The position numbers were made by a program, and so were the translations under genes. Positions 5,492-26,105 of a stretch of 32,000 nt of DNA are shown in pieces. Each line of letters starts with the position of its first letter. Position 1 is the stretch's first letter. The notes under the pieces were generated by a model. The model saw nothing but the letters and a program-made list of their open reading frames with translations. It did not search any database and had not been told where the DNA came from. Source of the DNA: Promethearchaeota archaeon (lineage in GTDB: Archaea > Asgardarchaeota > Lokiarchaeia > Sigyniarchaeales > SOKP01); assembly GCA_030606485.1 (NCBI GenBank), contig JAUWGH010000006.1:120001-152000 (forward strand), read 5' to 3'.

Positions 5492-5530
5492 CTTTTATCT
5501 TACACCTGTTTTTTCTTTCTAATTTTTTAA

Positions 5531-7320: not shown

Positions 7321-7821
7321 ATGCCTATAAAGAAAATAGAAGAAATCCCGATAAAAGGGTTAAGTAAGGAATTACAATTAATTATCTTTTTTTACCAAGA
7401 ATATAAAAATAATAATAAAAAAATTGCAGCTGATCAAATTTTTAAAAGGTTTCCACCTCCGGGAAGTGTTTCTTATAACTTAGATAAATTAACAAAACTT
7501 GAATTTTTAAAAAAAGAAATTCTAAATGGCACTTCGCAAAAGTTGGGACAACCGAAGGTTATATACAGTATAAATCCAGACCGTCTTCCTGATGTTGAAC
7601 AATATTTAAAAGAAAATTTATCCCTACTTAAACCCTTATTTTCAATATTATTTGCCGACTCTTCTGCTTCAGAATTGAAAGATAAAAACATTCTTAGACT
7701 TTTTGAAGATTTGAAATTTGAATTAAAATCATATTTAGAAGATCTAAAAATCAAAAATACTCCTAAACAAGTTAAAAAATTGTATGAGAAGATATATCAC
7801 TTTTTTCTTGATAATTCTTGA
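7321..7821 (+). CDS. Winged-helix protein, putative transcription regulator
   Basis: IAADQIFKRF..PGSVSYNLDKLTKLEFLKK...GQPKVIYSIN fits a helix-turn-helix plus wing with a G-x-P-K-x-x-Y wing motif; the C-terminal half is helical. Confidence 0.65.
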   Translation: MPIKKIEEIPIKGLSKELQLIIFFYQEYKNNNKKIAADQIFKRFPPPGSVSYNLDKLTKLEFLKKEILNGTSQKLGQPKVIYSINPDRLPDVEQYLKENLSLLKPLFSILFADSSASELKDKNILRLFEDLKFELKSYLEDLKIKNTPKQVKKLYEKIYHFFLDNS

Positions 7822-8071
7822 GTCTAAAGAAATCTTCCTTCTATAGGCAATGTTTAATTTCATATATTTTTATTTTAAATTTTAAAATATAATCTTATTA
7901 AGTACCAAATACGACTCTAAAATTAAATTATTACTGTTTATTAAACCTATGAAGAGTCAAAAACTTTTTAATAAATTAACAAAAGAGTTTAAATATTAGA
8001 TTGATATTAATAAAATTAAATAAAAAGTTACTAAAAAGGGAGATATATTTTAAAAAAAAGGTGAATTTATT

Positions 8072-11000
8072 TTGAAAAAAATATTTAATCGAAATTATAA
8101 AAAAATCTTAATTCTTAGCAGTTTAATGATTATATTATATCTAAATTTTATTACATTTGGTAATATCATAAATGAGTATGTTTATTTTAATAACTATGAT
8201 GACGAAACAAATGAGTTTTTTCAAAATGATAGTATAAGGTCTCAAGATTATTTTGAGCAGCATTTTGATAATATAGAATGGCTTAAAAATAATACTTTTG
8301 ATCCCCCCGTAACTGAATGGTATAATACAACAGAAGGAGATATTACAGATGTAAATGCATCATTAAGTCCAGGTGTGGCAAATTTTGAGGTTCTAGGAGA
8401 TTCGGGAGAAATTAAAATCGATGATCCCTTTGATGACACCAATTGGACGCGTTTCAACAATCCAGAATTCCCAGTTTTACCTGATACTGCTTTAATTAAT
8501 TCAGCTGGCTGTTATATTGCCCATACATGGAATGAAAATGATAATCAAACTCGTAATACTCCTAGTGCCAATTGGAAAAGAAATATCGAAATGCCTGTTA
8601 ACATGTCAGATTATAAAATCACCTCCGCGTCACTTGAGGCAGTATTTAATGCATCTGTACAAGCAACACCTCTTATTGGAGGTATTGAGTGCCCCGGTGA
8701 TTATACTAATGGTCCAGGAAGTGATCCCCAATTTGCTACGGGTGATCAGGCAAAATTTTATGTCTTAATTTCAGATGTTGATCAAATCCAAGAATATAGA
8801 ATAGCATATAATCAAACCATTGATTTAGGACAAGATCTGGGTCCAATTGAAAGTTATGGTGAAACCCAAATGAATTATATTCCAGAGAACGTATTAATTG
8901 ATCTATTAACAGCGATTTTACAATACGATGATTATAACTTTACTATTACTGTAGGAATTGATTTATACTGTGAAGATAATGAATATGGTGCGGATATAGA
9001 CACATGGAACTATTTAATTATCAGATCTCTCAATTTAACTATTACTTACGAAAAATGGGTGAATCAATTTACATCAGTATCTTGGTGTCAAGATGGAGAT
9101 AAAATAAGCGGAACCAATGTCATTATTAAAAACGCCACACTTAACTTTAAATATAAAATTGATCAAAACTGGACTGACTCATCTCCAAATTCCGAAATTA
9201 GAATTTTAATTAATAATTTGTTGCATTCGGAAACCGTTAAATTAAGTACGGCTAATACCTCCTTTCAAGACGCAAAAATTGGTGGATTTGATGTCTCTTC
9301 TTTAATTCCAATAAATGAAAACATTAATACAACAATTCAAGTATATCTCGCAGATACATTTGCATTAGATCAGAAAATCAATATTTCAATTGATGATGTT
9401 TACCTTAAAATTTCTTATAAAATAATTACAATCGGAGAACAAACAGATTTTGTATTGTTTTTAAATGGAGAAAATAAAACTCTGGGAAAATTTCTTAAAG
9501 TTCCTTACGGGGATCCTATAAATATTACTATGAAATACATCAATTTATCGAGAGACTTTATACCGGGTGCAGATGTAACATTAACAGGGCTGGATGGTGT
9601 TAAAGATTTAGATGAAAATGGTCTACATGAACATTATAATATAACGCTCGATACAGGAACTTTTTCACTTGGAGAACATATTTTTACATTATATGCATAT
9701 AAGGAAGGTTATGATCCTCAAGAGATTTCACTTACTATAGAAATAATTGAAAGGACTACTTTTCTTGACGAAATTCACCTAAATCAGACAGAAACTAAAA
9801 TAATTGCATTTCCGTATGGGGAACCTTTGAATATCACAGTAGCATATAGAGATAATGCCACTAAAAATTTCATCGAAGGAGCTGAAGTAAAATTATTTGA
9901 TGGGGAGGATCTTAAAGGAACTTTCGATCAACAACTACCCTATGAACAATATAATCTTACGATAAATACTACTGATATTGGAATTGGATCGAGTCTTTTG
10001 ACAATTTATGCAAGTCAAGATAATTATTCAGCTTCTTTTGATACAATAATAACTGTTATAGAAATGAAAACGGAATTACATCTAGAAATAAATGGTAGTG
10101 AAATATTATATAATGAAGTTTACGAACTTCAAGTAAATGAGTCAATACTACTTACAGTTAACTATACAGACTATTATACTGGGGATCATATTGGGAGTGC
10201 AAATGTATCATTAACAGGGGCAGATATTTCGGAAAATTTAACAGAAAACATAGCATTAAAGCATTATAACATAACTTTGCACGCAGTAAATTTAACTAAA
10301 GGATTTAATTTTTTAACAATTATTGCCCAAAAAGAAGATATTATGCCTCAAGCCATTTCGTTTTCAATTAATATAATTGAGAGAAAAACGGTTCTAAACC
10401 TATTAATCAATGATACGGATATAACAACAACTAAAACTTATGTATTTCAAATAGGGGAAACTATAAACATTAAAGTGGATTATACAGACATTGAAACTGG
10501 ACAATTTATTGACGTTGCAACCATAGAAATAACGGGAGGAGGCATTTCAGCTACTTTAAATGAATATAGTAATTATTATTTGATCACCATAAGCGCAGAA
10601 GATTTAACTCAAGCAATCAACTTTATAAGAATTCTTGCCGAAAAGAAAAATTATCAACCTCAACCTATTGAGTTTAGAATTGATGTTATTGAAAGACAAA
10701 CATATGCAAGTTTCTTATTGAATCAGATAAATAAAACGCTTGATAAGACAATGGAACTTCCAATAGGTGATAATTTAAACATTACTTTTAAATATTTTGA
10801 CGCTAAGACGGGGGAGTATATCAATAATGCAACAGTGCAACTAATAGGAACGGATATTCCTTTGAATTTAACGGAATATTCTCAATTACAACATTATTCG
10901 CTAAATATAGATACAAGAAATTTGACTCGGGTTCAATTTTTAACTATTGTTGCTGAAAAGACGAATTATCAACCCTCATCAAACGTTCTGAAGATAACAG

Positions 11001-11752
11001 TTAGACAAATAAAAACAAATATTTCTGTGGTATCTGGAGAAGTTGTGAATATAGGAGTTGGTGGATCTCATCTTATCAATATTACTATATATGATATAGA
11101 CAATAATGTATCCTTAACCAATGTTACTGTCAGGTTCTCGGGTGATTTAGGCCAAGGAGTTCTTATTGAAGATCCAAATAATCCGGGTTCCTATCAAGCA
11201 TATTTTGAAAATGTAGGGCTTGGTACTTATAGAATTATTATAATTGTTACTGAAAGCAGCGGTGATTATTCATTTGAAGATAAAGAGGTTACATTGAGTG
11301 CAACTATATCTGAAGGAGAAGTCATGTTAATTTGGGGTAGTTTGATAGCATCTATCGTTGCTGCTATTACGATAGGGGGCTATTTCATTGCATATCAGAG
11401 ATACCTTAAATATCCAAAACCAGTTAGAAAGGTTCATAAATTCAAAAGGACTCTAAAGAGGAAATCAACCCCATCAGTAGATATTATTAGTCGTGATGAT
11501 TCATTCAAATCTCTACATAAAGAAGGATTGGGAAAAGTATCTAGATTAAAACCAGGTAAACTAGAAGAAGATAAACTTCCATCAGTCGATATAAAATCTG
11601 AAGCTAAATTTGCAGAAGAAACTCCGTCAACTAAAACGCAACCCGAAATTAAACCTCCTGAAAAAAGCCTGGTTTCTGATGAAAAGTTAAAAAAAAAATC
11701 TGACAAATCAAAAGATAAAACGTTAAACAAATCCAGTAAGACAGATAATTAA
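8072..11752 (+). CDS. Large single-pass cell-surface glycoprotein with about 6 Ig-like repeats, copy 1
   Basis: N-terminal basic-then-hydrophobic signal segment; roughly 105 aa repeats (T.L.L.N...NITV.Y.D...G..I..A.V.L.G...Y.ITI....L..G...LTI.A.K.NY); many NxS/T sequons; C-terminal TM near 11321-11392 and a charged cytoplasmic tail. Confidence 0.85.
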   Translation: MKKIFNRNYKKILILSSLMIILYLNFITFGNIINEYVYFNNYDDETNEFFQNDSIRSQDYFEQHFDNIEWLKNNTFDPPVTEWYNTTEGDITDVNASLSPGVANFEVLGDSGEIKIDDPFDDTNWTRFNNPEFPVLPDTALINSAGCYIAHTWNENDNQTRNTPSANWKRNIEMPVNMSDYKITSASLEAVFNASVQATPLIGGIECPGDYTNGPGSDPQFATGDQAKFYVLISDVDQIQEYRIAYNQTIDLGQDLGPIESYGETQMNYIPENVLIDLLTAILQYDDYNFTITVGIDLYCEDNEYGADIDTWNYLIIRSLNLTITYEKWVNQFTSVSWCQDGDKISGTNVIIKNATLNFKYKIDQNWTDSSPNSEIRILINNLLHSETVKLSTANTSFQDAKIGGFDVSSLIPINENINTTIQVYLADTFALDQKINISIDDVYLKISYKIITIGEQTDFVLFLNGENKTLGKFLKVPYGDPINITMKYINLSRDFIPGADVTLTGLDGVKDLDENGLHEHYNITLDTGTFSLGEHIFTLYAYKEGYDPQEISLTIEIIERTTFLDEIHLNQTETKIIAFPYGEPLNITVAYRDNATKNFIEGAEVKLFDGEDLKGTFDQQLPYEQYNLTINTTDIGIGSSLLTIYASQDNYSASFDTIITVIEMKTELHLEINGSEILYNEVYELQVNESILLTVNYTDYYTGDHIGSANVSLTGADISENLTENIALKHYNITLHAVNLTKGFNFLTIIAQKEDIMPQAISFSINIIERKTVLNLLINDTDITTTKTYVFQIGETINIKVDYTDIETGQFIDVATIEITGGGISATLNEYSNYYLITISAEDLTQAINFIRILAEKKNYQPQPIEFRIDVIERQTYASFLLNQINKTLDKTMELPIGDNLNITFKYFDAKTGEYINNATVQLIGTDIPLNLTEYSQLQHYSLNIDTRNLTRVQFLTIVAEKTNYQPSSNVLKITVRQIKTNISVVSGEVVNIGVGGSHLINITIYDIDNNVSLTNVTVRFSGDLGQGVLIEDPNNPGSYQAYFENVGLGTYRIIIIVTESSGDYSFEDKEVTLSATISEGEVMLIWGSLIASIVAAITIGGYFIAYQRYLKYPKPVRKVHKFKRTLKRKSTPSVDIISRDDSFKSLHKEGLGKVSRLKPGKLEEDKLPSVDIKSEAKFAEETPSTKTQPEIKPPEKSLVSDEKLKKKSDKSKDKTLNKSSKTDN
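9437..11305 (+). repeat. About six tandem Ig-like domain repeats (approximately 105 aa each)
   Basis: Repeat junctions IEIIE-RTT, ITVIE-MKT, INIIE-RKT, IDVIE-RQT and ITVRQ-IKT are visible in the translation; boundaries are approximate. Confidence 0.75.
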
Positions 11753-12010: not shown

Positions 12011-14218
12011 TTATAAATTCATTTTCTTTTTCCAAAAATTCAATTTTTTCTCTAATTCTTTTTGTTCTTCATTATTTAATACATTTAGTTGAGTAGTAAG
12101 AGGAGGGATAGTATTTTTTATGCCAATTAAAACTCCCAAAAATCCTTTGATCTTCAAAATAGCACCTTGTAATTTTATTAACTGTTTGGAAATTTCTACA
12201 CCAGTTTTTTTCTCAAGCTGGTTTTTTATAAATTCAAAATAGTTTGCTAAATCATTGAGTGTTGTTATTTCAGAACTTTCAACCTCAGCAGAAACTATGT
12301 TTTCTTTTTCTCGAATTATTTTTTTTTCAGGAATTTGAGTTTGTACTGAAGTAGATTGAGCGGTCTTCATTGGTTCTAGTTTTTGAGGTTTTATATTTAT
12401 GGGAGTTTCCATTTTATCTTTTGTTTCAATTTGTCCTTTTATCTCTATCTTTTTAGATTGGAAGGATGGTTGAGTCGGTTGGGGGCTTACAGGTATTTGT
12501 TCTGAAGGTTTAGTACCTCTTCTTTCAAGGACATGGAAAATTTCTTTACGTGCTCCAATCCAAGCCTCTTCTAAAATCGGTGCAAATATTTTTATATGTT
12601 CTTCAATTATGCTGCCAATGCCAGCAATTTCAGTTATCTCCTTACCTCCAACTTCCGATTTTGATACTACACAGAGTACAACTTCTTCATGATCTTTATT
12701 AACTCCCCATAAGTTTTGCATTTCTCGATGCCTATAGGTGACATTTTGCATCTGGTCTAATTCTTGTAAAATCGCTACGTGAGCGGAAGAAGAAGGATCT
12801 ATATTGGTCGCAATCCTGATGTTTATAAATTTTGGAATTTTCTGAAGGGCATTAACATCAATATCTGTGAGTTGAGGAGTAATAATTAATAACCTCATTT
12901 TTGCTTTTGAAATTTGTTCATTAATATGAGCTTTCGCACTTTCAATAGATCCTATAAACCAAATATCTCTCATCGTAAATTGCGAAACTCTTTTAGATCT
13001 ATCCCAAAACTCTCTGGTGGTTATGTCGCTAATCTCTAATCTATTTAGAATTTTTTTTAAAACATCTTCAAAGGTTTTAATAACTCTAATTGAAAAATCA
13101 TTTCTTAAGTTGCTAAATGATTCTAAAATCGCTTCAGAAATTCCTGAAAGCTTCTCTTCTGCCATTATTATTGTTTTATTAAAATTTATACTTATATTAC
13201 CAAAAATATTTTTCATATTTTCTCCAGTCTGTGCCGTAGAGTTAGTGATATCATTCATATTGTTAATCATTGTTCCTAATATTTTATTTAATTTTAAAAT
13301 AAATTGTTCATTGAACTCTTTATTAATCTCCTCTAATCCTATTTCAAAAACTTTTTGAATTATCTGCTCTACGGTTTTTTGAATAACTCCAAGACGTAAA
13401 TTTTTCAGATTTAGGGAAATCTTTTTCTGTATATCATTAAATTTTTTACTTAGATTTTCAATTTGTGTTTCCATAATCTTTCTTGTTTCATCCTCAAGAC
13501 CTCCAATTACCTCAGTAATCGCTTTTATTTTATCGATTTCGGCTAAACCATTCTCAAAATCTGCTTTTTGAGAACTCATTTTTGATAACATATCTTCATT
13601 TAAATTATTCATAAAATCGCTATAATCTTTAAGCTTTTTAACACCTTCAGCTTTTGATTCCATTTGAGCTAATGATTGTTTTAATTGAGGTGGAACCTTT
13701 TCTATAATATCACTTATAAACGAGTTAAAATTTTTTAATTGACTTATTAAGGCAGCATAAGGAGGTAGCGCAGCATAATGTGGTGTACCTCCAATGACTT
13801 TTTTATATAATCCCTTTTGAACAAATTTTTCAGCAATTGTTTCACATTCTTCTTTAGGTTTATCAATTAAAATCGATATTTCTCCAAGAGATACTGCAGG
13901 TCTCCCAGTTGTCAAGAAATATAATTCTATTTCCTCATCGGATAGTTCAATTTCGCTTAAAACTTGTCTAGTTAATTCACGAGAATAAGATACGTCTTTT
14001 TCTATAATATCTTCTATATTAAAATTTGCAATCTCTAAATTCTTATCAAAAAATACGATCAATCTATGTGGAGGTTCACCATGAATATTTTCTTTTCTAA
14101 TAGGAAATTCTGTAGTATTTTTATACTCTTCCGCTGTAATTACCAATTTTATTTCCTTTAAACAAGATTTGCATATAAAAGGGATTGTTATTTCTTCTTG
14201 ATCTTTAAATAAATACAT
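12011..14218 (-). CDS. Multidomain Zn-finger / TrmB-type wHTH / coiled-coil / degenerate PLD-like protein, copy 2
   Basis: FICKSC...HGEPPH; same domain order as 3299-5491; the wHTH segment is 67/77 identical to copy 1 by hand count. Confidence 0.7.
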   Translation of the reverse strand: MYLFKDQEEITIPFICKSCLKEIKLVITAEEYKNTTEFPIRKENIHGEPPHRLIVFFDKNLEIANFNIEDIIEKDVSYSRELTRQVLSEIELSDEEIELYFLTTGRPAVSLGEISILIDKPKEECETIAEKFVQKGLYKKVIGGTPHYAALPPYAALISQLKNFNSFISDIIEKVPPQLKQSLAQMESKAEGVKKLKDYSDFMNNLNEDMLSKMSSQKADFENGLAEIDKIKAITEVIGGLEDETRKIMETQIENLSKKFNDIQKKISLNLKNLRLGVIQKTVEQIIQKVFEIGLEEINKEFNEQFILKLNKILGTMINNMNDITNSTAQTGENMKNIFGNISINFNKTIIMAEEKLSGISEAILESFSNLRNDFSIRVIKTFEDVLKKILNRLEISDITTREFWDRSKRVSQFTMRDIWFIGSIESAKAHINEQISKAKMRLLIITPQLTDIDVNALQKIPKFINIRIATNIDPSSSAHVAILQELDQMQNVTYRHREMQNLWGVNKDHEEVVLCVVSKSEVGGKEITEIAGIGSIIEEHIKIFAPILEEAWIGARKEIFHVLERRGTKPSEQIPVSPQPTQPSFQSKKIEIKGQIETKDKMETPINIKPQKLEPMKTAQSTSVQTQIPEKKIIREKENIVSAEVESSEITTLNDLANYFEFIKNQLEKKTGVEISKQLIKLQGAILKIKGFLGVLIGIKNTIPPLTTQLNVLNNEEQKELEKKLNFWKKKMNL

Positions 14219-14412
14219 TTTTTATAATCCACATTTTTGTATTTTATTTTATCAAAATTTAAATTTCTCTAAATAAGCAAGATCTAATAAGTTAAAAGAA
14301 TTCTTAACTTTTTCTTGTGCTATTTTTAATTATATTATATATAAATTTTATCTAATATCACTAAAATTAAATATCCCAAAATATTTGAAATAAAAAAATA
14401 TTTTAAATATTA

Positions 14413-14452
14413 ACTCTATTAGCATCAAAATTATATTTATGGAATATAATAG
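14413..14452 (+). promoter_or_regulatory. Conserved upstream element (probable BRE/TATA promoter) of GTPase gene 1
   Basis: 34/40 nt identical to 16269-16308 and at nearly the same distance (88 vs 90 nt) from the inferred TTG start; contains an A-run followed by TTTAT. Confidence 0.5.
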
Positions 14453-14539
14453 AAATATTTAGAAATATTAATATAATCATTAAATCCAAATTTAATTTTT
14501 GTTAATTTTAAATAATTTGAATTATTGAGGAAAAGGTCT

Positions 14540-16168
14540 TTGTCAATAAATAAAGCTCCACTCTTTACTGAATTGTTTAAAAATTTTTTAGAAATTAATA
14601 AAGAATTAGAAGCCGTAATCGTCTCTGATGAAGATGGATTAATTATTGCTGGGGAAAAAAGAAAAGACATTGATCTGGAAATCATCTCTTTTTTAACCGC
14701 TGTCATCAATCCCGTCTTAGAACGGATTCGTAATGAATTTACCTTTAAAAAATTTGGTACTGCAAGTTTCGATACGGAGAATAATCGTTTATTATTTGTT
14801 TCTGTGGATAAATCGACAACTTTAAGTTTTATTTTGGAACAAATGGCTTCGGCTGATAAATTAGCGCCTTATGCATATTTTCTCGCTGAAAAGGTTGCGC
14901 AAATTCTTAATGCTATCGAAGGTGATTTAATACAACTATCAATTCCCAAATTTGAATACGAACCGAAATTTTCTGACTCCTCTGATAGATTAAAAAATCA
15001 AATATATCAGAGTAAATTGGATCACGGAGGAGATTATACTTTTAAATTCATAATAATCGGTGATCACAAAGTTGGAAAGACTTCAATAATTAGAAGGTTT
15101 GTAGAAAAGAAATTTTTAGCAGATTATCGTACAACTATTGGTCTTAACATTATGTCGCATAATTTTGAAGCTTTTGGAAATCAAATCAACTTGCTCCTTT
15201 GGGATATAGGCGCACAAAAATATTTTAAAAGATATCGAAAAACTTATTATAATGGTGTTCAAGCGGCATTTATCGTTTTTGACCTAACTGCTCCAGAAAC
15301 ATTTGAAAATGTAAAAACGTGGTACAAAGAGTTAAAAGAATTCAGTGAAAATAAAGATTTTCCAATTATAATAATAGGAAATAAAAATGATTTAACTGAA
15401 CAAAGAGTGATTAGCTACCAAGATGGTACAAAATTAGCAAGTGATTTATCTTATTTATCTGATTTCTCTGATCTATCTGAATTATCTGAATTCTCTGATT
15501 TATCTAATATAACAAATACAAAAATACCATATATTGAAACGAGCGCTTTAACTGGAGCTCATGTCGATGATGCTTTTAATTTAATTTCTTATCATTATAT
15601 ATTAAAGAGTACTGAAATAGAAGAAGAAAGATTAAAAAATAATATATTAAGCATTATTAAATCAATTTTAGAGGATAAAGGGTCTTTAACTCTATCTTTT
15701 ATCACGGAAGATCTATTATGGAGCCCTTGCTTACAGGTTTTAACAGATATAAGAAAATTAGGAGAATATTCAAAAGTTAAAGATAAAAAGATAGAAAAAT
15801 TATATAAATATCAAAATGGGTTAGTTTTAAAGAATTTTGTCTTTGAATCATTTAGTGTTTCTGATTCTGATGGTGTATTTTGTATATTTGATGCCAGAGA
15901 GAAAGAGCATATCAATCCAAATTGGAAAGAGATTGTAATTAAAATTATTAAAAAAATTAAAAAGAATAAAGTTATTTTAATTGGAATTAGAGTATCTGAA
16001 AAGTCAGAATGGTCACAATTGATGGAAGAATTTGATATCAACGAACAGGCGGAGGAAAAAATGATCTCACTCTTATTCTTTAAAATTGGACAAGAATATC
16101 GCTCGGAAATATACGAACAACTTGAAATTATGCTGGATACGATCAAAAATCTTCTTTTTGTTTATTAA
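14540..16168 (+). CDS. Roadblock/LC7 + Rab-like small GTPase + degenerate second G-domain, copy 1
   Basis: Roadblock AVIVSDEDGLIIAG; G1 GDHKVGKTS, G2 YRTTIG, G3 WDIGAQ, G4 NKND, G5 ETSAL; Rab-like YYNG. Start TTG 14540 is preferred over 14525 because it aligns with the paralogue start and follows GAGGA at 14527. Confidence 0.88.
   Translation: MSINKAPLFTELFKNFLEINKELEAVIVSDEDGLIIAGEKRKDIDLEIISFLTAVINPVLERIRNEFTFKKFGTASFDTENNRLLFVSVDKSTTLSFILEQMASADKLAPYAYFLAEKVAQILNAIEGDLIQLSIPKFEYEPKFSDSSDRLKNQIYQSKLDHGGDYTFKFIIIGDHKVGKTSIIRRFVEKKFLADYRTTIGLNIMSHNFEAFGNQINLLLWDIGAQKYFKRYRKTYYNGVQAAFIVFDLTAPETFENVKTWYKELKEFSENKDFPIIIIGNKNDLTEQRVISYQDGTKLASDLSYLSDFSDLSELSEFSDLSNITNTKIPYIETSALTGAHVDDAFNLISYHYILKSTEIEEERLKNNILSIIKSILEDKGSLTLSFITEDLLWSPCLQVLTDIRKLGEYSKVKDKKIEKLYKYQNGLVLKNFVFESFSVSDSDGVFCIFDAREKEHINPNWKEIVIKIIKKIKKNKVILIGIRVSEKSEWSQLMEEFDINEQAEEKMISLLFFKIGQEYRSEIYEQLEIMLDTIKNLLFVY
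15440..15511 (+). repeat. Eight imperfect 9-bp units (consensus TCTGATTTA) encoding S-[DE]-[LF] repeats
   Basis: agtgattta tcttattta tctgatttc tctgatcta tctgaatta tctgaattc tctgattta tctaatata. Confidence 0.85.
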
Positions 16169-16268
16169 TAAAGAAAACATTACAAACAAAAATTATCTTT
16201 TATTAGAAATTTTTAATTTAAAAAAATTTTATTTTAAAAATTTGACTTAAAAAATAATCTAAAAATTT

Positions 16269-16308
16269 ACTCTGTTAACATCAAAATTAAATTTATAAAA
16301 TATTATAG
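16269..16308 (+). promoter_or_regulatory. Conserved upstream element (probable BRE/TATA promoter) of GTPase gene 2
   Basis: Duplicate of 14413-14452; contains CAAAATTAAATTTATAAAA. Confidence 0.5.
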
Positions 16309-16397
16309 TAATAGTTAGAAATTTAATTTTTTTAATTATAATAATCTAAATTTAATTTTTATCAATACTAATTAATTTAAATTTTAGAGGAAATATT

Positions 16398-18035
16398 TTG
16401 CCAATAAATAAAGCTCTACTCTTTACTGAATTGCTGAATAATTTTTTGGAAATTAATAAAGAATTAATAGCTGTAATTGTCTCTGATGAAGACGGATATA
16501 TTATTGCTGGGGAAAAAAGAAAAGACATTGATATAGAAATAGTCTCTTTTTTAACCGCTGTTGTTAATCCAATATTAGAACGGATTCGTAAAGAATTTAC
16601 ATTTAAAAAGTTTGGGACAGCAAGTTTCGATACCGAAGATAATCGATTACTATTTGTTTCTGTGGATGAAGCAACAACTTTAAGTTTTGTTTTGGAGCAA
16701 ATGAGTTCTGTTGATAAGTTAGCGCCTTATGCATATTTTCTAGCTGAAAAGATTGCACAAATTCTTACCGCTGTTGAAGGTGATTTAATACAATTAACTA
16801 TTCCCAATTTCGAATATGAAGCGGAACTTTCTAAAAGTTCTGACAGATTAAAAAACCAAATTTACCAGAGTAAATTAGATCACGGGGGGATGTATCGTTT
16901 TAAATTTATAATAATTGGGGATCACGAAGTTGGGAAGACCTCAATAATTCGTAGGTTTGTAGAAAATAAATTTTTAGCAGATTATCGTACGACCATAGGC
17001 CTTAATATTATGTCACATAATTTTGAAGCTTTTGGAAATAAGATTAACTTGTGGCTCTGGGATATTGGTGCACAACAATATTTCAAAAGATTTCGAAAAA
17101 CTTATTATAATGGTGCCCAAGCCGCATTCATCGTTTTTGACTTAACATCTCAAGAAACATTTGAAAATCTAAAAAATTGGCACAATGAGCTTAAAGAATT
17201 CATTGAGAATAAAGATTTACCAATAATAATAGTAGGAAATAAAAATGATTTGACTGAGCAAAGAGTAATTAGCTATCAAGATGGTGTGAAATTAGCAAGC
17301 GATTTATCTGATTTATCAAGTTTATTTGATTCATCTATTTTATCTGAGTTTTCTGATCTATCTGATTTATCTGAAGGTATAAAAACTAAGATATCATATA
17401 TTGAAACAAGTGCATTAACTGGAGATAATGTTGAATACGCTTTTCGGTTAATTTCTTATCATTTTATGTTAAAAAGTAAGGAAATAGAAGAAAAAAGATT
17501 AAAAAATGCGGTATTGGGTGAAATTGATTCAATTTTAGAGGATCATGATTCTTTAACTCTGTCCTTTATTACTGAAGATCCATTATGGAGCCCTTGTTTA
17601 CAGATTTTGGCAGGAATAGGAGAATTAGGGGATTATTTAAAAGTAAAAGATAAAGAGAACGAAAAAATATTTGAATATTCAAATGGGTTAGTTTTAAAGA
17701 ATTTTGATTGTGAATCATTTAAAATTTCTGATTCTAATGGCGTCTTTTGTATATTTGATGCGAGAGAGAAAGAACATATTGAACCAAAATGGAAGGATAC
17801 AGTAATTAAAATCATTGAAAAAATCAAAAAAAACAGAGTAATTTTAATTGGAATTAGGGTTTCTGAAGAGACAGAATGGTCACAATTGATGGAAGAATTT
17901 GATGTTAGCGAGAAGGCGGAAGAAAAAATGATATCACTCCTGTTCTTTAAAATTGGAGAAGAACATCGCTTGGAAATTTACAACCAACTTGAAGTCATGC
18001 TGAATACTATTAAAAATCTTCTTTTTAATTATTAA
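16398..18035 (+). CDS. Roadblock/LC7 + Rab-like small GTPase + degenerate second G-domain, copy 2
   Basis: G1 GDHEVGKTS, G2 YRTTIG, G3 WDIGAQ, G4 NKND, G5 ETSAL; the G-domain core is 76/83 identical to copy 1 by hand count; GAGGA precedes the TTG start. Confidence 0.88.
   Translation: MPINKALLFTELLNNFLEINKELIAVIVSDEDGYIIAGEKRKDIDIEIVSFLTAVVNPILERIRKEFTFKKFGTASFDTEDNRLLFVSVDEATTLSFVLEQMSSVDKLAPYAYFLAEKIAQILTAVEGDLIQLTIPNFEYEAELSKSSDRLKNQIYQSKLDHGGMYRFKFIIIGDHEVGKTSIIRRFVENKFLADYRTTIGLNIMSHNFEAFGNKINLWLWDIGAQQYFKRFRKTYYNGAQAAFIVFDLTSQETFENLKNWHNELKEFIENKDLPIIIVGNKNDLTEQRVISYQDGVKLASDLSDLSSLFDSSILSEFSDLSDLSEGIKTKISYIETSALTGDNVEYAFRLISYHFMLKSKEIEEKRLKNAVLGEIDSILEDHDSLTLSFITEDPLWSPCLQILAGIGELGDYLKVKDKENEKIFEYSNGLVLKNFDCESFKISDSNGVFCIFDAREKEHIEPKWKDTVIKIIEKIKKNRVILIGIRVSEETEWSQLMEEFDVSEKAEEKMISLLFFKIGEEHRLEIYNQLEVMLNTIKNLLFNY
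17298..17378 (+). repeat. Nine imperfect 9-bp units encoding S-[DE]-[LF] repeats
   Basis: agcgattta tctgattta tcaagttta tttgattca tctatttta tctgagttt tctgatcta tctgattta tctgaaggt. Confidence 0.8.
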
Positions 18036-18170: not shown

Positions 18171-19418
18171 TTAGAATTCAACTTTCTCTGGATAAGCAAC
18201 TTCTAATAATTCGAGGGCTTTCTTAGCAATTTCATGTGTTATTCTTTCATCTTTATTTTTAAAAGCTTCTCTGATTTTAGGAAGTAAGTATTCAGGAAAA
18301 AATATTAGAGGTTTAATATCAGTTAATAAAAATATCCAATTCCTTTCATCTTTATCTTTTATCTCAATTATCACATTAGACTCTTTTAAATCATTTAATA
18401 TCATTTCAGTATCGGCGAATTCTGAAAAAATCTTTGGCATTTTATCTAAGGGATAATATTTACTTCTCATTAAAACGAAAAAATCATATACATCTGGATT
18501 CAAAAGAATAGAAGCTAAATATTTCGTTTCTTCAATGGACTGTGTATTAGGATCGTACTTAGAAAAGAAATCAACTACTTTTTGTTCATATTTAGGATAT
18601 AACACATGATTGATTTCTTTTAAATGGTTTAATAATTTTATGTCTGGAACTCGGACTAAAAATATATCTTTTGTTAAAAATAAAAATTCACCCTGACGAC
18701 CAATTAAACCCGTTCTTTTATCCCTTTTTCCTTTAATCCAATCACGTTTTATTAAGTTTAATTCTAAAAAAGGGTCAAGTAGCACATCCACATTAGGATT
18801 CTCTTTTATTTTTTCTAATGCATTTCTCAATTCATTTTTTGAAATAGGTTTTTCTCGTAAAAGTTCTAATATTTTTAGTCTCTCTTCACTTTGAAAAATC
18901 AAAGCTGCTTTCTGTATTTTATCTAATTGAGATAAACGATCAATTTCAAAGATGGCAAATTTTAATTCACTCTCAATTTTAGAAATCATTTTATCAAGCA
19001 GAGAAATTTGCTTTAATTCACTTATTTTTACTAATGCTTCGAAATTACTATTTAATTTTTCTGCCATATTTTTAATTATATCCCAAAATATTTCGACCTC
19101 ATCCTCCAATTCAAAAATTGATATCGTTAAATATTGAAAACCATCAGATTCTTGTCTAAAATATGAAACAATTTGATATGGTGTTTCTTTTAATCTTCCT
19201 GAGTAAAAATTACTAAAAACACCTTTATCTGCAACTATTCCAGTTGTATGTTGATAAAATATTCCAAAAATATCATTTTGAACAATTAATTCCGAATAAT
19301 TAGCTTCAGTGAATTTTTGATTATTAAAAACTAGTTTTATCGGTCTGAATTCCGGTACAAATTCGCCCGTTTCTGTTTGATTTAAAACAAATTTAAAAAT
19401 TAAAATACCTTGAATCAT
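18171..19418 (-). CDS. Longin-like N-terminal domain plus two winged-helix domains, copy 2
   Basis: 45/60 identical to 5531-6784 over the first 60 residues (hand count), with similarity along the whole length to the C-terminal YPEKV(DW/EF). Confidence 0.55.
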   Translation of the reverse strand: MIQGILIFKFVLNQTETGEFVPEFRPIKLVFNNQKFTEANYSELIVQNDIFGIFYQHTTGIVADKGVFSNFYSGRLKETPYQIVSYFRQESDGFQYLTISIFELEDEVEIFWDIIKNMAEKLNSNFEALVKISELKQISLLDKMISKIESELKFAIFEIDRLSQLDKIQKAALIFQSEERLKILELLREKPISKNELRNALEKIKENPNVDVLLDPFLELNLIKRDWIKGKRDKRTGLIGRQGEFLFLTKDIFLVRVPDIKLLNHLKEINHVLYPKYEQKVVDFFSKYDPNTQSIEETKYLASILLNPDVYDFFVLMRSKYYPLDKMPKIFSEFADTEMILNDLKESNVIIEIKDKDERNWIFLLTDIKPLIFFPEYLLPKIREAFKNKDERITHEIAKKALELLEVAYPEKVEF

Positions 19419-19544: not shown

Positions 19545-19589
19545 CTCCCAAATATTTATAATAAGTGGTAAAAATTAGGGTTGGTTATT

Positions 19590-22500
19590 TTGAAAAAAAA
19601 AAATAGCATAAGTTATAAAAAAATTTTAATTCTATTCAGTTTAATACTTATATTCTCTTTAATTTTCATTACGCCTGGTATTTACACAAATAAAAATGGA
19701 TATTTTAATAATCCTACTGATGAAACTAATACTGATGAAATCAATACTGATCTTCAGAATAAAGATTTTAGGTCTCAAGGTATAACCTCCGATAATATTT
19801 ATTCAGGAATTGGGGCTCCTTGGAATCTAACTCATTGGGCTAATCGAACGGATTATGATATCCCAGTAGATTTTACTAGTCCACTTATACCTAATGATGA
19901 TGGTAAATGGGGTAGAATGTGTCCGCTTGTAATACAATCTAGTAAGGTTAATAGCGACTTATCGAATTTCACTATCCTTTTAACAAATGATACACTTCCA
20001 TCTGAAATGTTTAATGCAGATGGTCTTTACCCTGCATTAGATGGTGGAGGGGATATTCGTTTTTCGACCGATCTAAACGGTGACAACCTTCTTCCCTGTG
20101 AAATAGTCACATTTACAACTGATAACAACCCTGCTAACGGTAAAGCTGAGATTTGGGTTAAAGTTCCTTCTATTAGTTCCTCTACCGATACCACCATCTA
20201 TGTCTGGTATAACAAACTTGGATACAACGAAGCTGCAATGAACCAACCTGCTGCGGATGATATTCTTGGTTCGGAAGCTGTGTGGTCAAATAACTTTGAG
20301 GGCGTTTGGCATTTGAATGAAAGTTCTGGGAGCGCAAAAGACAGTACATCTAATGGATATGATGGCTCTTTTCAAGGAGATTTACCAGACGCTCAAATTG
20401 GACAAATTGGGGAGGGACAAGATCTTGATGGAACCGGCGATTATGTAGATATAGGCGATGCAGGAACTGGGATACAGACTATTGAGTTTTGGATGGAATC
20501 AGATGATCTTACTGATAGTTTGGATACTGATACTGGTTGGAATATTCCAAGTAATTATGATGATGATTATTGGGATTGGGATTATCCAGGTAATGTCTCC
20601 ACAAATAATAATCAATACGCATCAGAGCCCGATGCTAGTGGTTCACAAGATTGGTATGACTTTAATTTTGGTATACCCGGCGGTTCTTCGATCAATGGTA
20701 TTTGGGTACATATTGAAGCAAATGAAATGGGTGTGGGTACTGCTGGTGCAGACATTGAACTTTCTTGGAATGGAGGTAATTCTTATACCAGCACAGGTTA
20801 TGGAGATGACTACTCTGGTTCTGATGTTAATTATTATTATGGTAGTTCATCAGATCTTTGGGGCAGAGTATCATGGGCTGATACTGAATTAAGCAACGCT
20901 AATTTTAGGGTTAGATTAACGAAAAATGGTGTAACAACTCCTAGAGTTGACCTTCTAAGGGTAAGGGTTTATTATACCATAACCAACGTTAACAGGAAAA
21001 TAATTGATATAGATGGTACCGACCAGATAGAAATCGACGGAAGTACTGCTGATATACTTGCCACTAGTTTTCCAGGTACTACAACAATTTATGTAGACGG
21101 AGCAGTTGCATCTGGTGTAACAACAAACTGGCATCATGTTGTAATTACTGATACGACCGGAGTCAATCCTTCTGATATGGATATTGGTCGAGTTTCATCA
21201 AGGTACTTTGACGGTATCATCGATGAGGTCCGGATCTCAGATACTGTAAGAAGTGCCGACTGGATTAATTCACTATACAACAATCAAGATGATCCGAGCA
21301 CCTTTGTTATTAACGGAACTCCAATAGAGGGCGGCATCATCTCAATCTATATTATCGAACAAATATCTAATATTGTAGATATGCCTTTAGATCTTGGGTG
21401 GCAAGGTAAAAAATTAAACGCTACCATAAAGGACTTGTATGATAAAAGAAATTGGATCAATGGAACTTTCCACGCTGGACCTGATGATAATGACCCTTCC
21501 TGTCCTGAAAATGATAGTATTTATCTTCAAAATTGGACTTATGGTGAATATGATGTTGTGGGTGATTATAGTAATGATATGTCTGGAAATTATTTTGATA
21601 GCACAAACGATCCTTCTAACAATGGCAGTGATTGCTTGGAATTAAGAATGGATGGAGATGGTTTTGGATATGATAAATATGATAGATGTTGGTGGGAGTC
21701 GAATTTCACTTTGCCAAGGGGAAAGGTGATTGAGGGTGAAATAAATCTTGTGATATGTCCTTATACGCAATATTACGAAACCCGTGAGTTTGGAACGCAT
21801 TGGAGTGTTCAAGTTATCTTAAATGGTATAGTAATTGATGACAAGAATCTTATATGGTTAGAATATAGTGGGGGTGGTGATTGGTATCCCTTGAAATTAC
21901 AGTTAACGAATTGGTTAGACGATCCAATAGTATTTCCGGATAATGAGAAAAATATGAGCCTTAGGATACAATTAATAAGAAATGGACCAACACTTAGTCA
22001 CGGCCCGTATGGTTCATATCAACAAGTACTTTTTGATGACGTATCATTAATCGTAAAAACAGAGGTTAAACCTACTCAAATCGGCTTAAAAATGAACCAA
22101 ACTGCTGTTATAGATACTTCAAATTGGGGTGAAGGCACTGTAGAAATAGATGGTGATTGGAATGGCACCCAGTTTCCTTTAGTGCACGCTAATTTTAGCA
22201 ATGATGAGGTCTGGGCATTAGGTGATTATGATATCGATTTTAAAACGAATGTAAATCTTTTTGCGACAAAACATACTCCAGAAACTAATTATGAGACAAA
22301 TGCAGCTTCGTTAGGCACCGGGTTTTCTGTAAGTAATGATAGTTTAGTAAATTGGGAATGTTATGGGTATACTTCGGTCCCAACGGGATATGCCGAAACA
22401 GAAATGAGACTTGAATTTCCAACTGATGTTTATATCACTTGGGTTTCCTATCCTTCAGACCCGCTTATTAATAAATTAGATTTATGTGATAATTCAACTG

Positions 22501-25500
22501 CTGGACTTTTAATTGTTAACGTGTCCAAAATATCAGCTACACCAGATGGTTTTTGGAAGTTTGAAGCAATATCCCCAAATTATTTTGAGCAATTAAATAT
22601 ATATAACAATGCTACAGGTAGTTGGATCGAAGATAACGAATTTTTAAGTGGAGAATATATAAATATTACTGCGAAAATAACGAATAGTCCATTGATATCT
22701 GCTTATATTTTGGATACTAAAGCAATTCTCCATGTAAGATTCCCAAATGGCACTATATGGACAGAAAAAACACAAGAAAAAAACCTTATTTCAAACGGTT
22801 TTGTTTATTTTGATTCTTTTCAAATACCTTCCAACATTCCTAATTATAAAGTAGGAGAATATGATGCAATAATTTCGTGGAATAATTCTCATTCTATTTA
22901 TGGGTTAAATGAAACTGGCATAATCTACAAAAAATTTACCGTAATTCACAATTCTACATTAATACCTGACCAAAGCTATTACGCAGATATATTTGAAGGC
23001 ACTTCAATAAATTTAAAAGTTTCATTTAATGATCTTAAAGATGGCAAGGCTATAGAGGGTGCTGTTGTATATACATATAATTTTACTCATCCTACTATAA
23101 TACAGAATTTCAGTGAAATTAGTCCAGGTTATTATGTTTTTTTAGATTTTAATGTTAGTGGTGCTCCACAAGCTGGTGATAATATTATAACAATTTATGC
23201 AAATTCTTCTTTATATACGAATAATGAAGTTGATGTAACTATTGAAGTAATAAAAGCAACGACTCTTACTGTAGATAAGTCAATTTTATCTGTCCAGTGG
23301 AATGATAATTTTACAATCCAATTAAACTATACTGAGGAAGTTAGTGGGACAGGTATTGATACTACACCAATAAATAATTGGGTAGGAGAAACCCATACTG
23401 TTAGAATCTCTCAAGGAGTATATAACATAACTTGTAATAGTTCCGCATATGAAGTAAATAAACGTTATAATTTATATGTTGATTTTAATGAAACTGGTTA
23501 TGAAACACAATCAATAACAACTATAATTGAAATTGTTGAAAGAGAAACATATATCGACGATATTTTCATAAATGGTAGTGATTGCACGACTAATAAATCT
23601 TATAATGTTAAAGCAGGAGAACTTTTGAATCTTACCGTAAAATATAGGGATATTGAAACAGGTGGGACTTTTATTAATAATGCTCTAGTAAAATTAATAG
23701 GAACGGGAATAGAAAAGACTTTTAACGAAAGGATATCATTCCAATACTATAACTTAACTTTAAATTCAACAGAATTAGGTGTTGGCGTAAAGTTTTTAAC
23801 TATTACTGCTCAAAAAGATAATTATACATCTGCTTCAGAATTGTTAACCATAACTGTTTTTGAAAGAGGAACTAATTATATTTTATATTTGAATGAAACT
23901 GATTCTACAAGCGATCCATCTTACCAACTAACTGATAACCAGCTCTTGAATATCACTGTCTCCTATATAGATACAATATTGACGGAACATATTAGTGGTG
24001 CTACAGTGGATATAAACGGATCAGGAATCTCTAAACAATTTGTTGAGGCTTTCAATAATTATTCTGTAGAAATAAATTCGACAGATTTAAATCTAGGTGT
24101 AAATTTTTTAACTATCTATGCTCAAAAAGAAACTTATGAACCCCAATCAATACTGATTACAATAGAAGTAATACAAATAGAAACAGAATTAAATCTATAT
24201 TTAGATGGAGAGGATAAAACAAGTGAACCATCAATTACAAAATATACAAATCAGAGCTTAAATATTACAATATCGTATAGAGAGTTCGAAATACCCAATA
24301 AACATGTTAGCGGAGCTATAGTGGACATAAATGGATCAGGAATATCTGAGCCTTTATATGAGGCATTCAATAATTATTCTGTGCTTATAAATACGACTAA
24401 ATTAAATCTAGGAGCAAATTTTTTAACAATTTATGCTCGTAAAGATAAGTATGAACCACAAACGATTTTACTTTCGATAGAGATAATACAAATAGAAACA
24501 AATTTAACATTATATAAAAATGGGATAGATATAACAGCTATACCATCAATTAAACAATACACAAATCAAATTCTAAATATTACAGTATCATATAAAGAGG
24601 CTACAGGTCCCTACAAACATGTGAGCGGCGCTATAGTTGATATAAATGGATCGGGAATTTCAAAGGTTTTTAATGAATTAGGAACCAATTATTCAGTTCT
24701 TATTGATACTACAAATCTTAATCAAGGAGCAAATTTTCTGACAATTTATGCTCGTAAAGAAAACTTTGAGCCTCAAACGATTTTACTTACAATAGAGATA
24801 ATACAAATAGAAACAGACTTAAAGTTATTTTTAAATGGAGTGGATAAAACAAATGAACCTTCTATTGACGTAATTACACTTGAAACTTTAAATATCACTA
24901 TAAAATATACCACTTATGGAACTGGAGTCCATATTAGTAATGCAACAATTGAATTATCTGGAAGTGGACTTTCGATAAATATAAGTGAAAATCTTGGTTT
25001 AAAGCAATATTCATTTATTATTAATACAATAGATTTAAACGTAGGATTTAATTTCTTAACAGTTTATGCTCAGAAAAGCAATTATGAAGCTCAAACGATT
25101 TTAATCACAATACAGCTAATTGAAAGAAAAGCATATGATGAGATATATTTAGACAATGAAGATAAAACACTTGAAAAATCAATCGAAACTCCAATAGGTA
25201 AGGAGTTAAATATCACTTTTAAATATTTTGACGATATAACAGGAAATCACATTCCTCAAGCACTAGTACAACTTATAGGAGCAGGACATACTTGGAATTT
25301 TACGGAAAATAATTCATTAAAGCAATATTCGCTAATTATAGATACTACAGAATTAGATATTGGACTTAAATTTCTAACCATATATGCTCAAAGGACATAT
25401 TATCAATCTTCTTCAGAGCTTTTAGAGATAACTGTTAGACAAATAAAAACAAATATTACAACAGAATCTGGAGAAGATGTAATAAATATACAAGCTGGTG

Positions 25501-26105
25501 AATCTTATACTCTAAGAATAACTTTACATGATTTAGATTTTGGAAGTATAATAAAGAATGCAACTGTTAGATATACATGGGAATTAGGACAAGGTTACCT
25601 TACAGATGATGATAATAATGGCATTTTTGAGGTCACATTAGAAAATATACCTGAAGGCACTTTTACTATTACTTTCACTATTTTGAATGTAAGTGATGAT
25701 TATTTATTTGAGCGAAAAACAATAACTCTAAATGTGGTTAGTCCTCCAGAAGAAACTCTAATATTTCTGATATTAACTATAGTCGCCATTGCTGCCTTTA
25801 TTAGTGTCACCAGTTATTTCATAGCATATCAAAGAGTATTAAAGTATCCAAAACCTGTTAGAAAAATTCATAAATTCAAGAAGACTTTAAAGAAGAAAAA
25901 ATCTCCTGATGTTGAAATTCTCTCGAGTAAAGTTCTATTAAAAGCCCTCTACAATGAAGAATTAGATCCTGTTGCTAAACTTTTTAAAGGGAAGATGAAA
26001 TATGAACAACCAGAAAAACAACTAGAACTAAAACCATCAAAAGATGAATTAATTGATACTTTATCCGAAATATCACCTGAAGAATCCGAAAAAAATGAGA
26101 AATAA
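19590..26105 (+). CDS. Giant single-pass cell-surface glycoprotein: DUF2341 + LamG/ConA-like domain, further beta-rich domains and about 9 Ig-like repeats, copy 2
   Basis: DUF2341-like GGDIRFS...CEIV...AEIWVKVP...IYVWY; LamG-like GVWHLNE...DGTGDYV...WHHV...FDGIIDEVRIS; Ig repeats; TM and tail as in 8072-11752. TTG 19590 is preferred over 19581 because it aligns MKK.....YKKILIL with copy 1. Confidence 0.85.
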   Translation: MKKKNSISYKKILILFSLILIFSLIFITPGIYTNKNGYFNNPTDETNTDEINTDLQNKDFRSQGITSDNIYSGIGAPWNLTHWANRTDYDIPVDFTSPLIPNDDGKWGRMCPLVIQSSKVNSDLSNFTILLTNDTLPSEMFNADGLYPALDGGGDIRFSTDLNGDNLLPCEIVTFTTDNNPANGKAEIWVKVPSISSSTDTTIYVWYNKLGYNEAAMNQPAADDILGSEAVWSNNFEGVWHLNESSGSAKDSTSNGYDGSFQGDLPDAQIGQIGEGQDLDGTGDYVDIGDAGTGIQTIEFWMESDDLTDSLDTDTGWNIPSNYDDDYWDWDYPGNVSTNNNQYASEPDASGSQDWYDFNFGIPGGSSINGIWVHIEANEMGVGTAGADIELSWNGGNSYTSTGYGDDYSGSDVNYYYGSSSDLWGRVSWADTELSNANFRVRLTKNGVTTPRVDLLRVRVYYTITNVNRKIIDIDGTDQIEIDGSTADILATSFPGTTTIYVDGAVASGVTTNWHHVVITDTTGVNPSDMDIGRVSSRYFDGIIDEVRISDTVRSADWINSLYNNQDDPSTFVINGTPIEGGIISIYIIEQISNIVDMPLDLGWQGKKLNATIKDLYDKRNWINGTFHAGPDDNDPSCPENDSIYLQNWTYGEYDVVGDYSNDMSGNYFDSTNDPSNNGSDCLELRMDGDGFGYDKYDRCWWESNFTLPRGKVIEGEINLVICPYTQYYETREFGTHWSVQVILNGIVIDDKNLIWLEYSGGGDWYPLKLQLTNWLDDPIVFPDNEKNMSLRIQLIRNGPTLSHGPYGSYQQVLFDDVSLIVKTEVKPTQIGLKMNQTAVIDTSNWGEGTVEIDGDWNGTQFPLVHANFSNDEVWALGDYDIDFKTNVNLFATKHTPETNYETNAASLGTGFSVSNDSLVNWECYGYTSVPTGYAETEMRLEFPTDVYITWVSYPSDPLINKLDLCDNSTAGLLIVNVSKISATPDGFWKFEAISPNYFEQLNIYNNATGSWIEDNEFLSGEYINITAKITNSPLISAYILDTKAILHVRFPNGTIWTEKTQEKNLISNGFVYFDSFQIPSNIPNYKVGEYDAIISWNNSHSIYGLNETGIIYKKFTVIHNSTLIPDQSYYADIFEGTSINLKVSFNDLKDGKAIEGAVVYTYNFTHPTIIQNFSEISPGYYVFLDFNVSGAPQAGDNIITIYANSSLYTNNEVDVTIEVIKATTLTVDKSILSVQWNDNFTIQLNYTEEVSGTGIDTTPINNWVGETHTVRISQGVYNITCNSSAYEVNKRYNLYVDFNETGYETQSITTIIEIVERETYIDDIFINGSDCTTNKSYNVKAGELLNLTVKYRDIETGGTFINNALVKLIGTGIEKTFNERISFQYYNLTLNSTELGVGVKFLTITAQKDNYTSASELLTITVFERGTNYILYLNETDSTSDPSYQLTDNQLLNITVSYIDTILTEHISGATVDINGSGISKQFVEAFNNYSVEINSTDLNLGVNFLTIYAQKETYEPQSILITIEVIQIETELNLYLDGEDKTSEPSITKYTNQSLNITISYREFEIPNKHVSGAIVDINGSGISEPLYEAFNNYSVLINTTKLNLGANFLTIYARKDKYEPQTILLSIEIIQIETNLTLYKNGIDITAIPSIKQYTNQILNITVSYKEATGPYKHVSGAIVDINGSGISKVFNELGTNYSVLIDTTNLNQGANFLTIYARKENFEPQTILLTIEIIQIETDLKLFLNGVDKTNEPSIDVITLETLNITIKYTTYGTGVHISNATIELSGSGLSINISENLGLKQYSFIINTIDLNVGFNFLTVYAQKSNYEAQTILITIQLIERKAYDEIYLDNEDKTLEKSIETPIGKELNITFKYFDDITGNHIPQALVQLIGAGHTWNFTENNSLKQYSLIIDTTELDIGLKFLTIYAQRTYYQSSSELLEITVRQIKTNITTESGEDVINIQAGESYTLRITLHDLDFGSIIKNATVRYTWELGQGYLTDDDNNGIFEVTLENIPEGTFTITFTILNVSDDYLFERKTITLNVVSPPEETLIFLILTIVAIAAFISVTSYFIAYQRVLKYPKPVRKIHKFKKTLKKKKSPDVEILSSKVLLKALYNEELDPVAKLFKGKMKYEQPEKQLELKPSKDELIDTLSEISPEESEKNEK
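23860..25115 (+). repeat. Tandem 315-bp (105 aa) Ig-like repeats
   Basis: The identical junction ATACAAATAGAAACA occurs at 24171, 24486 and 24801 (exact 315-bp spacing); VDINGSGIS and NFLTIYA recur; outer boundaries are approximate. Confidence 0.85.

Follow-up and report, generated by a model that had tools for sequence, protein, structure and literature searches.

We analysed a 32,000-nucleotide stretch of an Asgard archaeal genome (Promethearchaeota archaeon, assembly GCA_030606485.1, contig JAUWGH010000006.1, positions 120,001 to 152,000; hereafter the window), which has a G+C content of about 29% and comes from a 3.75-Mb genome in 13 contigs. The window carries two tandem genes for paralogous proteins, copy 1 and copy 2, which we read as a Roadblock/LC7 domain followed by a live Rab-like G domain and a second G fold that is catalytically dead. 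We consider it reasonably probable that they represent a three-module small-GTPase protein of one Loki-type Asgard family, as delimited by the genomes sampled, and that this protein works along the lines set out below. An earlier note, made from the sequence alone, had proposed these three parts, namely a Roadblock domain, an active-looking Rab-like G domain and a second G fold without a P-loop, and this proposal is borne out by the analysis.

The C-terminal domain of copy 2, modelled alone with a predicted local distance difference test (pLDDT) score of 90.6 and a predicted template-modelling (pTM) score of 0.87, was compared with the PDB by two independent structure searches. In Foldseek, small GTPases fill 48 of the 50 top rows, the best being the GDP form of the Asgard Arf-related protein HodArfR1 (E = 2e-6), while a receptor-G-protein complex and an EF-Tu-type factor take up the remaining two. 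The best match in VIA, which does not depend on Foldseek, is again HodArfR1-GDP (8oul_A), with a Z score of 15.1 and a root-mean-square deviation of 3.5 over 164 of 174 residues; it is followed by other Arf, Sar and Arl proteins (Z 12.8-13.7), and the first non-GTPase fold appears at Z 10.9. ESM Atlas models of relatives superpose on the domain with template-modelling (TM) scores of 0.88-0.94, and a second predictor therefore gives the same fold. On these models, the C-terminal domain is strongly predicted to have a small-GTPase fold closest to the GDP form of Arf. The non-P-loop fold that would have spoken against the earlier note did not appear, and the four strings it had quoted as G-domain strands (LTLSFITED, DGVFCIFDAR, VILIGIR and ISLLFFKIG) sit exactly on the predicted strands beta1, beta4, beta5 and beta6. 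In addition, a sequence profile of the domain matches Rho6 (E = 3.5e-4) in register over beta4-alpha3-beta5, aligning DGVFCIFDAR...VILIGIR with DAVLLCFD...VLLIGCK.

The loops after beta1, beta3, beta5 and beta6 of this domain read EDPLWSP, CESFKISDSNG, VSEETEW and GEEH, respectively. None of them contains GxxxxGK[ST], DxxG, NKxD or SAK, and these motifs are likewise absent across 65 relatives, whose alignment reveals invariant Trp, Pro and Asp residues in the domain. Pfam and NCBIfam scans of the domain alone gave no match. On sequence grounds, it is predicted to be a pseudoGTPase of class-i type, which would neither bind nor hydrolyse nucleotide. It is joined to the preceding G domain by a long helix, the least conserved part of the protein (65% identity between the two copies). 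The ESM Atlas also holds clusters of Promethearchaeota 'hypothetical proteins' of about 196-202 residues with no Pfam family, one cluster having 1136 members, whose models superpose on the dead domain with TM scores of 0.63-0.68, and which may be free-standing divergent or dead GTPases.

For the middle domain of copy 2, the top Foldseek matches are Rab1, Rab10, Rab3, Rab8, Sec4 and Thor-Rab (target TM scores 0.86-0.92), and the match found by phmmer in the PDB is Rab14 (3.7e-31). In Pfam, the G domain scores 141 bits for Ras vs 25 bits for Gtr1_RagA. The motifs G1 (GDH[KE]VGKT), G4 (GNKNDL) and G5 (ETSAL) and the switch-I Thr of G2 (YRTTIG) are all present, and G1, the switch-I Thr, NKxD and SAL are nearly invariant among relatives. 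The exception is G3, which departs from DxxGQ: in an ungapped alignment with Rab14 (WDTAGQ) the protein reads WDIGAQ, with the Asp and Gln retained and the Gly shifted by one position, so that Ala occupies the position of Ras Gly60 and Gly the position before it. This DxGAQ form is found in 36 of the 37 family members examined, and the canonical forms DLAGQ or DIGGQ in the four two-domain Roadblock-GTPase paralogues of the same genome. The G domain had been described as intact, which holds for G1, G2, G4 and G5 and for its likeness to Rab, but not for G3 (DIGAQ). From its motifs, the domain is strongly predicted to keep the residues for GTP and Mg binding as well as the catalytic Gln.

Two further features of the G domain were observed. 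The P-loop carries a His at the position of Ras Gly12 (GDHEVGKT; 16917-16940 and 15059-15082), and this residue, H176, is invariant in the 65-sequence alignment; Rab-like proteins usually have Ser there, and His is unusual. The second feature is a Ser/Asp/Leu-rich insert that separates helix 4 from strand 6; it comes from a 9-bp (27-bp) tandem repeat in the gene, and is variable or absent in relatives. The last 20 residues of either protein contain no Cys (the C-termini are LLFVY and LLFNY), in agreement with the earlier statement that a Cys for lipidation is missing, and the domain is Rab-like but not a Rab, because there is no Cys for prenylation. The live domain belongs with the Asgard RasL proteins of Klinger and Vargova; according to Vargova et al., Rabs have no specific sister among the Asgard RasL proteins. 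The Rup3 group of the same authors, which has insertions in the G domain, was considered as a place for the family and rejected, as it is described as specific to Heimdallarchaeia.

A full-length AlphaFold2 (AF2) model of copy 2, built on the 65-sequence alignment, shows the topology of a Roadblock fold at the N-terminus, where the secondary structure assigned by DSSP to residues 5-123 consists of helix 5-19, strands 23-30 and 35-40, helix 46-66, strands 74-78, 83-88 and 93-99, and helix 105-123. At the level of the family, Pfam Robl_LC7 matches 51 of the 65 orthologues at E ≤ 1 (best 7.9e-6), and MAPKK1_Int/LAMTOR3 matches 23 of them. Comparison by hhalign of the domain profile with nine bona fide Roadblock proteins of the same genome gave a probability of 85.6% and an E value of 5.6e-6. 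The N-terminal domain, 84% identical between the two copies, is thus strongly predicted to be a Roadblock/LC7 domain, an assignment that holds at family level, and both the model topology and the profile matches place it where the earlier note had it. In the genome of the window (G000), the GTPase query has 41 matches and the Roadblock family 16, among them the four two-domain Roadblock-GTPase genes; a large GTPase/Roadblock repertoire of this kind is typical of Loki-type Asgard archaea. The coordinates of all features are collected in Table 1.

Table 1 Features of the tandem GTPase locus, in window coordinates
Feature	Position	Strand	Remarks
Neighbour X, 735 aa, unnamed	12011..14218	-	Divergent from copy 1; same position in loci L001, L034, L035 and L036
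GTPase paralogue 1 (copy 1)	14540..16168	+	542 aa from TTG 14540; in-frame upstream TTG 14525 less likely
Copy 1 Roadblock/LC7-like domain, aa 1-125	14540..14914	+	Pfam Robl_LC7 E = 0.12; family-level support
Copy 1 Rab-like G domain, aa 165-342	15032..15565	+	Pfam Ras 2.8e-41; GDHKVGKT, WDIGAQ, GNKNDL, ETSAL
Copy 1 Ser/Asp/Leu insert, helix 4/strand 6 of G domain	15442..15505	+	Tandem Repeats Finder: period 9, 7.1 copies
Copy 1 predicted pseudo-GTPase domain, aa 383-542	15686..16165	+	Homologous to the modelled copy 2 domain
Intergenic spacer	16169..16397	+	Contains the duplicated upstream region; bridged by contigs of other studies
GTPase paralogue 2 (copy 2)	16398..18035	+	545 aa; full-length AF2 model with pLDDT 77, pTM 0.63
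Copy 2 Roadblock/LC7-like domain, aa 1-125	16398..16772	+	alpha-beta-beta-alpha-beta-beta-beta-alpha (DSSP of model)
Copy 2 Rab-like G domain, aa 165-345	16890..17432	+	Pfam Ras 4.7e-42
Copy 2 Ser/Asp/Leu insert, helix 4/strand 6 of G domain	17301..17374	+	9-bp repeat, 8.2 copies
Long helix, aa 346-385 of copy 2	17433..17552	+	Runs from G-domain helix 5 into the second domain; helix 345-383 in the model
Copy 2 predicted pseudo-GTPase domain, aa 386-545	17553..18032	+	Arf-GDP-like fold without G1-G5
Neighbour Y, 415 aa, unnamed family	18171..19418	-	Convergent with copy 2
Neighbour S, 2174 aa, surface protein	19581..26105	+	C-terminal tail conserved in the protein after Y in L001

The presence of two co-located paralogues in tandem, also noted before, is confirmed by their open reading frames and by an identity of 79% across the full length. 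Moreover, the junction from the end of copy 1 to copy 2 is bridged by contigs of three independent metagenome studies, and a 9-kb contig from the Joint Genome Institute (JGI) has the order X-GTPase-GTPase-Y, matching that of the window, so the arrangement is real and not an assembly artefact. Both genes start with TTG preceded by GAGG 7-9 nt upstream, and about 170 nt 5' of each start align well between the copies. As this upstream region was duplicated together with the gene, and the alignment with copy 2 and the GAGG site agree, the start of copy 1 is most likely at 14540. Since the spacer between the genes holds the duplicated upstream region, copy 2 probably has its own promoter, each copy having kept its own upstream region. 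A very A+T-rich spacer of 320 nt (14218-14540) lies between copy 1 and the divergent gene X; strain variants in other metagenomes carry small indels directly 5' of the copy 1 TTG (14523-14535).

A first homology search returned at least 865 matches of 57-66% identity, with source labels of Loki-, Thor-, Hod- and Hermodarchaeota. We then searched 151 genomes of the phylum, sampled on the basis of GTDB, with the C-domain profile, which was found in all 25 genomes of the GTDB family of the window (six genera) and in none of the 125 genomes from 26 other Asgard families. The labels given by the submitters are probably loose, because in this sample the protein family is confined to one GTDB family. 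When 1.84 billion cluster representatives were searched exhaustively by HMMER with the same profile, 45 matches came up, almost all of them family members or fragments, including forms extended at the C-terminus by tetratricopeptide repeats (TPR); this search reached no bona fide GTPase and no architecture beyond the TPR-extended members.

In a tree of 37 family members, the two copies of the window form a clade (support 100/98), and their duplication therefore arose in this lineage. On this phylogenetic evidence, the window pair is a recent tandem duplication within its genus, and no ancient obligatory couple. The ratio of nonsynonymous to synonymous substitution rates (dN/dS) between the copies is 0.22, indicating purifying selection on both; by part, it is 0.23 for the dead domain, 0.18 for the live domain and 0.65 for the linking helix. 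The dead domain is under constraint. An older tandem pair, of about 522 and 521 aa, stands side by side at another locus in two other genera, where a divergent RING-H2-TPR gene adjoins it, and at this locus the genus of the window has a single gene of 532 aa (contig C5, C5:75193-76761).

Gene-order clustering and the tree together reveal two settings of the family. In the first, the 545-aa type sits between a divergent gene X (700-850 aa) and a convergent gene Y (415-417 aa), with a large surface protein, S, next after Y. This order, X|GTPase|Y(|S), is found in five loci, those of the window, L001, L034, L035 and L036, with a single GTPase gene in each except the window and its near relative L035. 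The orthologue of Y in the same position in L001 is 59% identical, Y is present also in L034, L035 and L036, and 600 homologues were found. The last 160 residues of S match a 1070-aa protein of L001 with 52% identity over 119 aa. Language-model look-ups placed X and Y in unnamed Asgard clusters of their own, and gave for X a TrmB-like winged helix, which comes from the language-model/Atlas look-up and is taken as a lead only.

Further arrangements were seen within and beyond the window. A second module of X, Y and a surface protein lies upstream in the window (3299-5491 and 5531-6784 on the minus strand, 8072-11752 on the plus strand), in which X and Y are 57% and 65% identical to the copies flanking the GTPase genes, and no GTPase gene stands between them; the GTPase genes look as if inserted, in opposite orientation, between Y and X of the other module. 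In the other setting of the family, a 190-aa RING-H2 + TPR protein (zf-RING_2, E 3e-8 to 5e-7) always divergently adjoins the GTPase gene or genes, as at L016:5294-5866 (minus strand), at L031:9903-10493 (plus strand) and at 14 further loci, including that of the third family member of the window genome on C5. Finally, TPR-extended members of 822 and 894 aa (L037:1156-3624 and 9001-11685, plus strand) flank a 1652-aa DUF2341/LamG surface protein (3707-8665, minus strand), a second and independent case of family members lying beside large surface proteins.

Several points weigh against the reading we favour. All the evidence on folds comes from predicted structures. The Roadblock domains of the window itself miss the Pfam cut-off for PF03259, with an E value of 0.12 or no match. 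A profile-profile comparison between the C-terminal domain and the G domain of the same protein is in register, but weak (probability 4%), and descent of the C-terminal domain from a GTPase rests for this reason mainly on structure and on one modest sequence match. The same weak match led us to reject a recent internal duplication of the G domain as the origin of the C-terminal domain, which is therefore old. As for the neighbours, no analysis tied the GTPase physically to X, Y or S; in the complex prediction, copy 2 (545 aa) was paired with Y (415 aa), an alignment being supplied for each, and the score of 0.01, against a mark of 0.32, is no evidence either way.

It could be argued that the C-terminus holds no degenerate G domain but a three-layer alpha/beta domain of a generic kind (flavodoxin, CheY or TIR type), with no more than a resemblance to GTPases. 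TIR and CheY-like chains do occur in the structure search (Z 9.7-10.9), the match to the G domain of the same protein is not significant, and the exhaustive sequence search reached no GTPase. We nevertheless regard this as very improbable, given that Arf, Sar and Arl proteins take all of the first five places in the structure search (Z 12.8-15.1 over 151-164 of 174 residues), 2-4 Z units above the first non-GTPase fold, that the two Foldseek rows not occupied by small GTPases are also GTPase-related, and that the sequence match to Rho6 is in register. A different question is whether the 'live' domain cycles at all, or whether DxGAQ and the P-loop His lock it in one nucleotide state, so that both G folds serve only as binding surfaces. 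The G60A substitution in Ras impairs the GTP-driven switch, and the corresponding position is Ala throughout the family; however, there is little or no variation in the catalytic Gln, the switch-I Thr, NKxD and SAL/SAK, which is hard to explain without a nucleotide-dependent function, and a non-cycling scaffold seems unlikely.

The co-located paralogues also recall a Rag-type couple, that is, an obligatory heterodimer joined through the Roadblock domains, like RagA/C or Gtr1/Gtr2, with cross-talk between the subunits. Roadblock domains usually dimerise. An operon pair of Ca. Prometheoarchaeum MK-D1 was modelled in this way (Tran et al. 2024, PMC10933270), the older tandem pair has been kept adjacent in two genera, and both copies of the window are under purifying selection. 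On the other side, the window pair is a young, lineage-specific duplication, 79% identical, and at the orthologous loci of related genomes a single GTPase gene is flanked by X and Y, which rules this pair out as an obligatory heterodimer for the family. The domain order is moreover the reverse of that in Rag, the G domain is Rab-like, and the Roadblock domains are so similar (84% identity) that modelling cannot separate homodimers from heterodimers. We consider such a couple distinctly unlikely.

Returning to the three-module small-GTPase protein, we propose the following mechanism. By analogy with MglB, Ragulator and the Rag C-terminal domains, the Roadblock domain would dimerise and serve as a platform, on which the G domain would be held or regulated in cis. 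As established knowledge of class-i pseudoGTPases suggests, the dead domain may serve for docking or allosteric control in a nucleotide-free state, with the shared helix coupling it to the live domain. The altered switch II (DxGAQ) could slow the cycle or make it depend on a partner, and the protein might act as a switch close to the membrane, in concert with its conserved neighbours X and Y and the single-pass surface protein. Its recurrent position next to X, Y, surface and TPR proteins suggests such a membrane-proximal role. A bolder version, which we hold to be decidedly improbable, would make the family an archaeal single-chain counterpart of Rag-Ragulator, with live and dead G lobes on a Roadblock platform and with paired paralogues (the old pair and the window couple) heterodimerising, which would couple single-pass surface proteins, via Y and the winged-helix X, to a cytoplasmic or transcriptional response. 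If true, a GTPase signalling module leading from the membrane to the cytoplasm would either predate its eukaryotic counterpart or have a separate origin.

Ideas on the origin of eukaryotic membrane signalling from Asgard archaea give a central place to small GTPases that have Roadblock and longin partners. The interest of the present family lies in the fusion of live and dead G folds behind a built-in Roadblock domain, in the family-wide rearrangement of switch II, and in the conserved neighbourhood with surface proteins. As the protein looks soluble, has about 540 aa and has clear domain boundaries, three questions are directly testable: whether the Roadblock domain regulates the G domain in cis, what the dead G domain contributes, and whether DxGAQ alters the GTPase cycle.

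Roadblock-GTPase ('RG') fusions have been described in Ca. Prometheoarchaeum MK-D1 (Tran et al. 2024, PMC10933270), and share with the present family the N-terminal Roadblock domain, the Rab-like G domain and the lack of a prenylation Cys. The four two-domain paralogues in the window genome are 34-37% identical over residues 4-304, and two of them pass the Pfam Roadblock cut-off. Whereas the RG type ends after the G domain (329-369 aa) and has a canonical DxxGQ or DxGGQ, the present family adds a 160-aa dead G fold and has DxGAQ. The supplement of Tran et al. (PMC10933270) lists the architecture codes RG, GR, LG, LGR, LGX and GXLX, and no RGX. In the literature searched, we found no paper describing a Roadblock-GTPase-dead-GTPase architecture in archaea, and none linking pseudoGTPases with Asgard archaea or archaea generally.

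Rag/Gtr proteins with Ragulator resemble the family in having G and Roadblock domains in one chain and two G-fold lobes per functional unit. In Rag, however, the G domain is followed by a C-terminal Roadblock domain, whereas the present order is Roadblock, G, pseudo-G; the G domain here is Rab-like, and the second G fold is in cis and dead, instead of being a second active subunit. Given this reversed order and a G domain of a different type, the protein does not count as a Rag. The MglA-MglB system of Myxococcus and Thermus likewise has a Roadblock protein acting on a Ras-like GTPase, but on separate chains, with the Roadblock dimer as a GTPase-activating protein in trans; MglA-GDP is a middling structural match for the present C-terminal domain (Z 11.3).

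The eukaryotic class-i pseudoGTPases, such as pG1/pG2 of p190RhoGAP (PMC5593906) and AAGAB (PMC12490416), also use a G fold without G motifs as a protein-binding module, and p190RhoGAP has in addition a live G domain in the same chain. The present domain has no detectable sequence relationship to them; it is archaeal, predicted to be Arf-GDP-like, and placed directly behind a Rab-like domain and a Roadblock domain. Its best structural match is found among the Asgard ArfR proteins (HodArfR1, PDB 8oul; Vargova et al. 2024 preprint), the likeness extending to the N-terminal helix and to the additional strand at the sheet edge seen in the GDP form. The ArfR proteins stand alone, retain every G motif and bind GTP or GDP, whereas the C-terminal domain has none of these motifs and is only 13% identical to HodArfR1. 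The family thus combines two known kinds of protein, the Roadblock-GTPase fusion and the pseudoGTPase, in an arrangement with a putative function.

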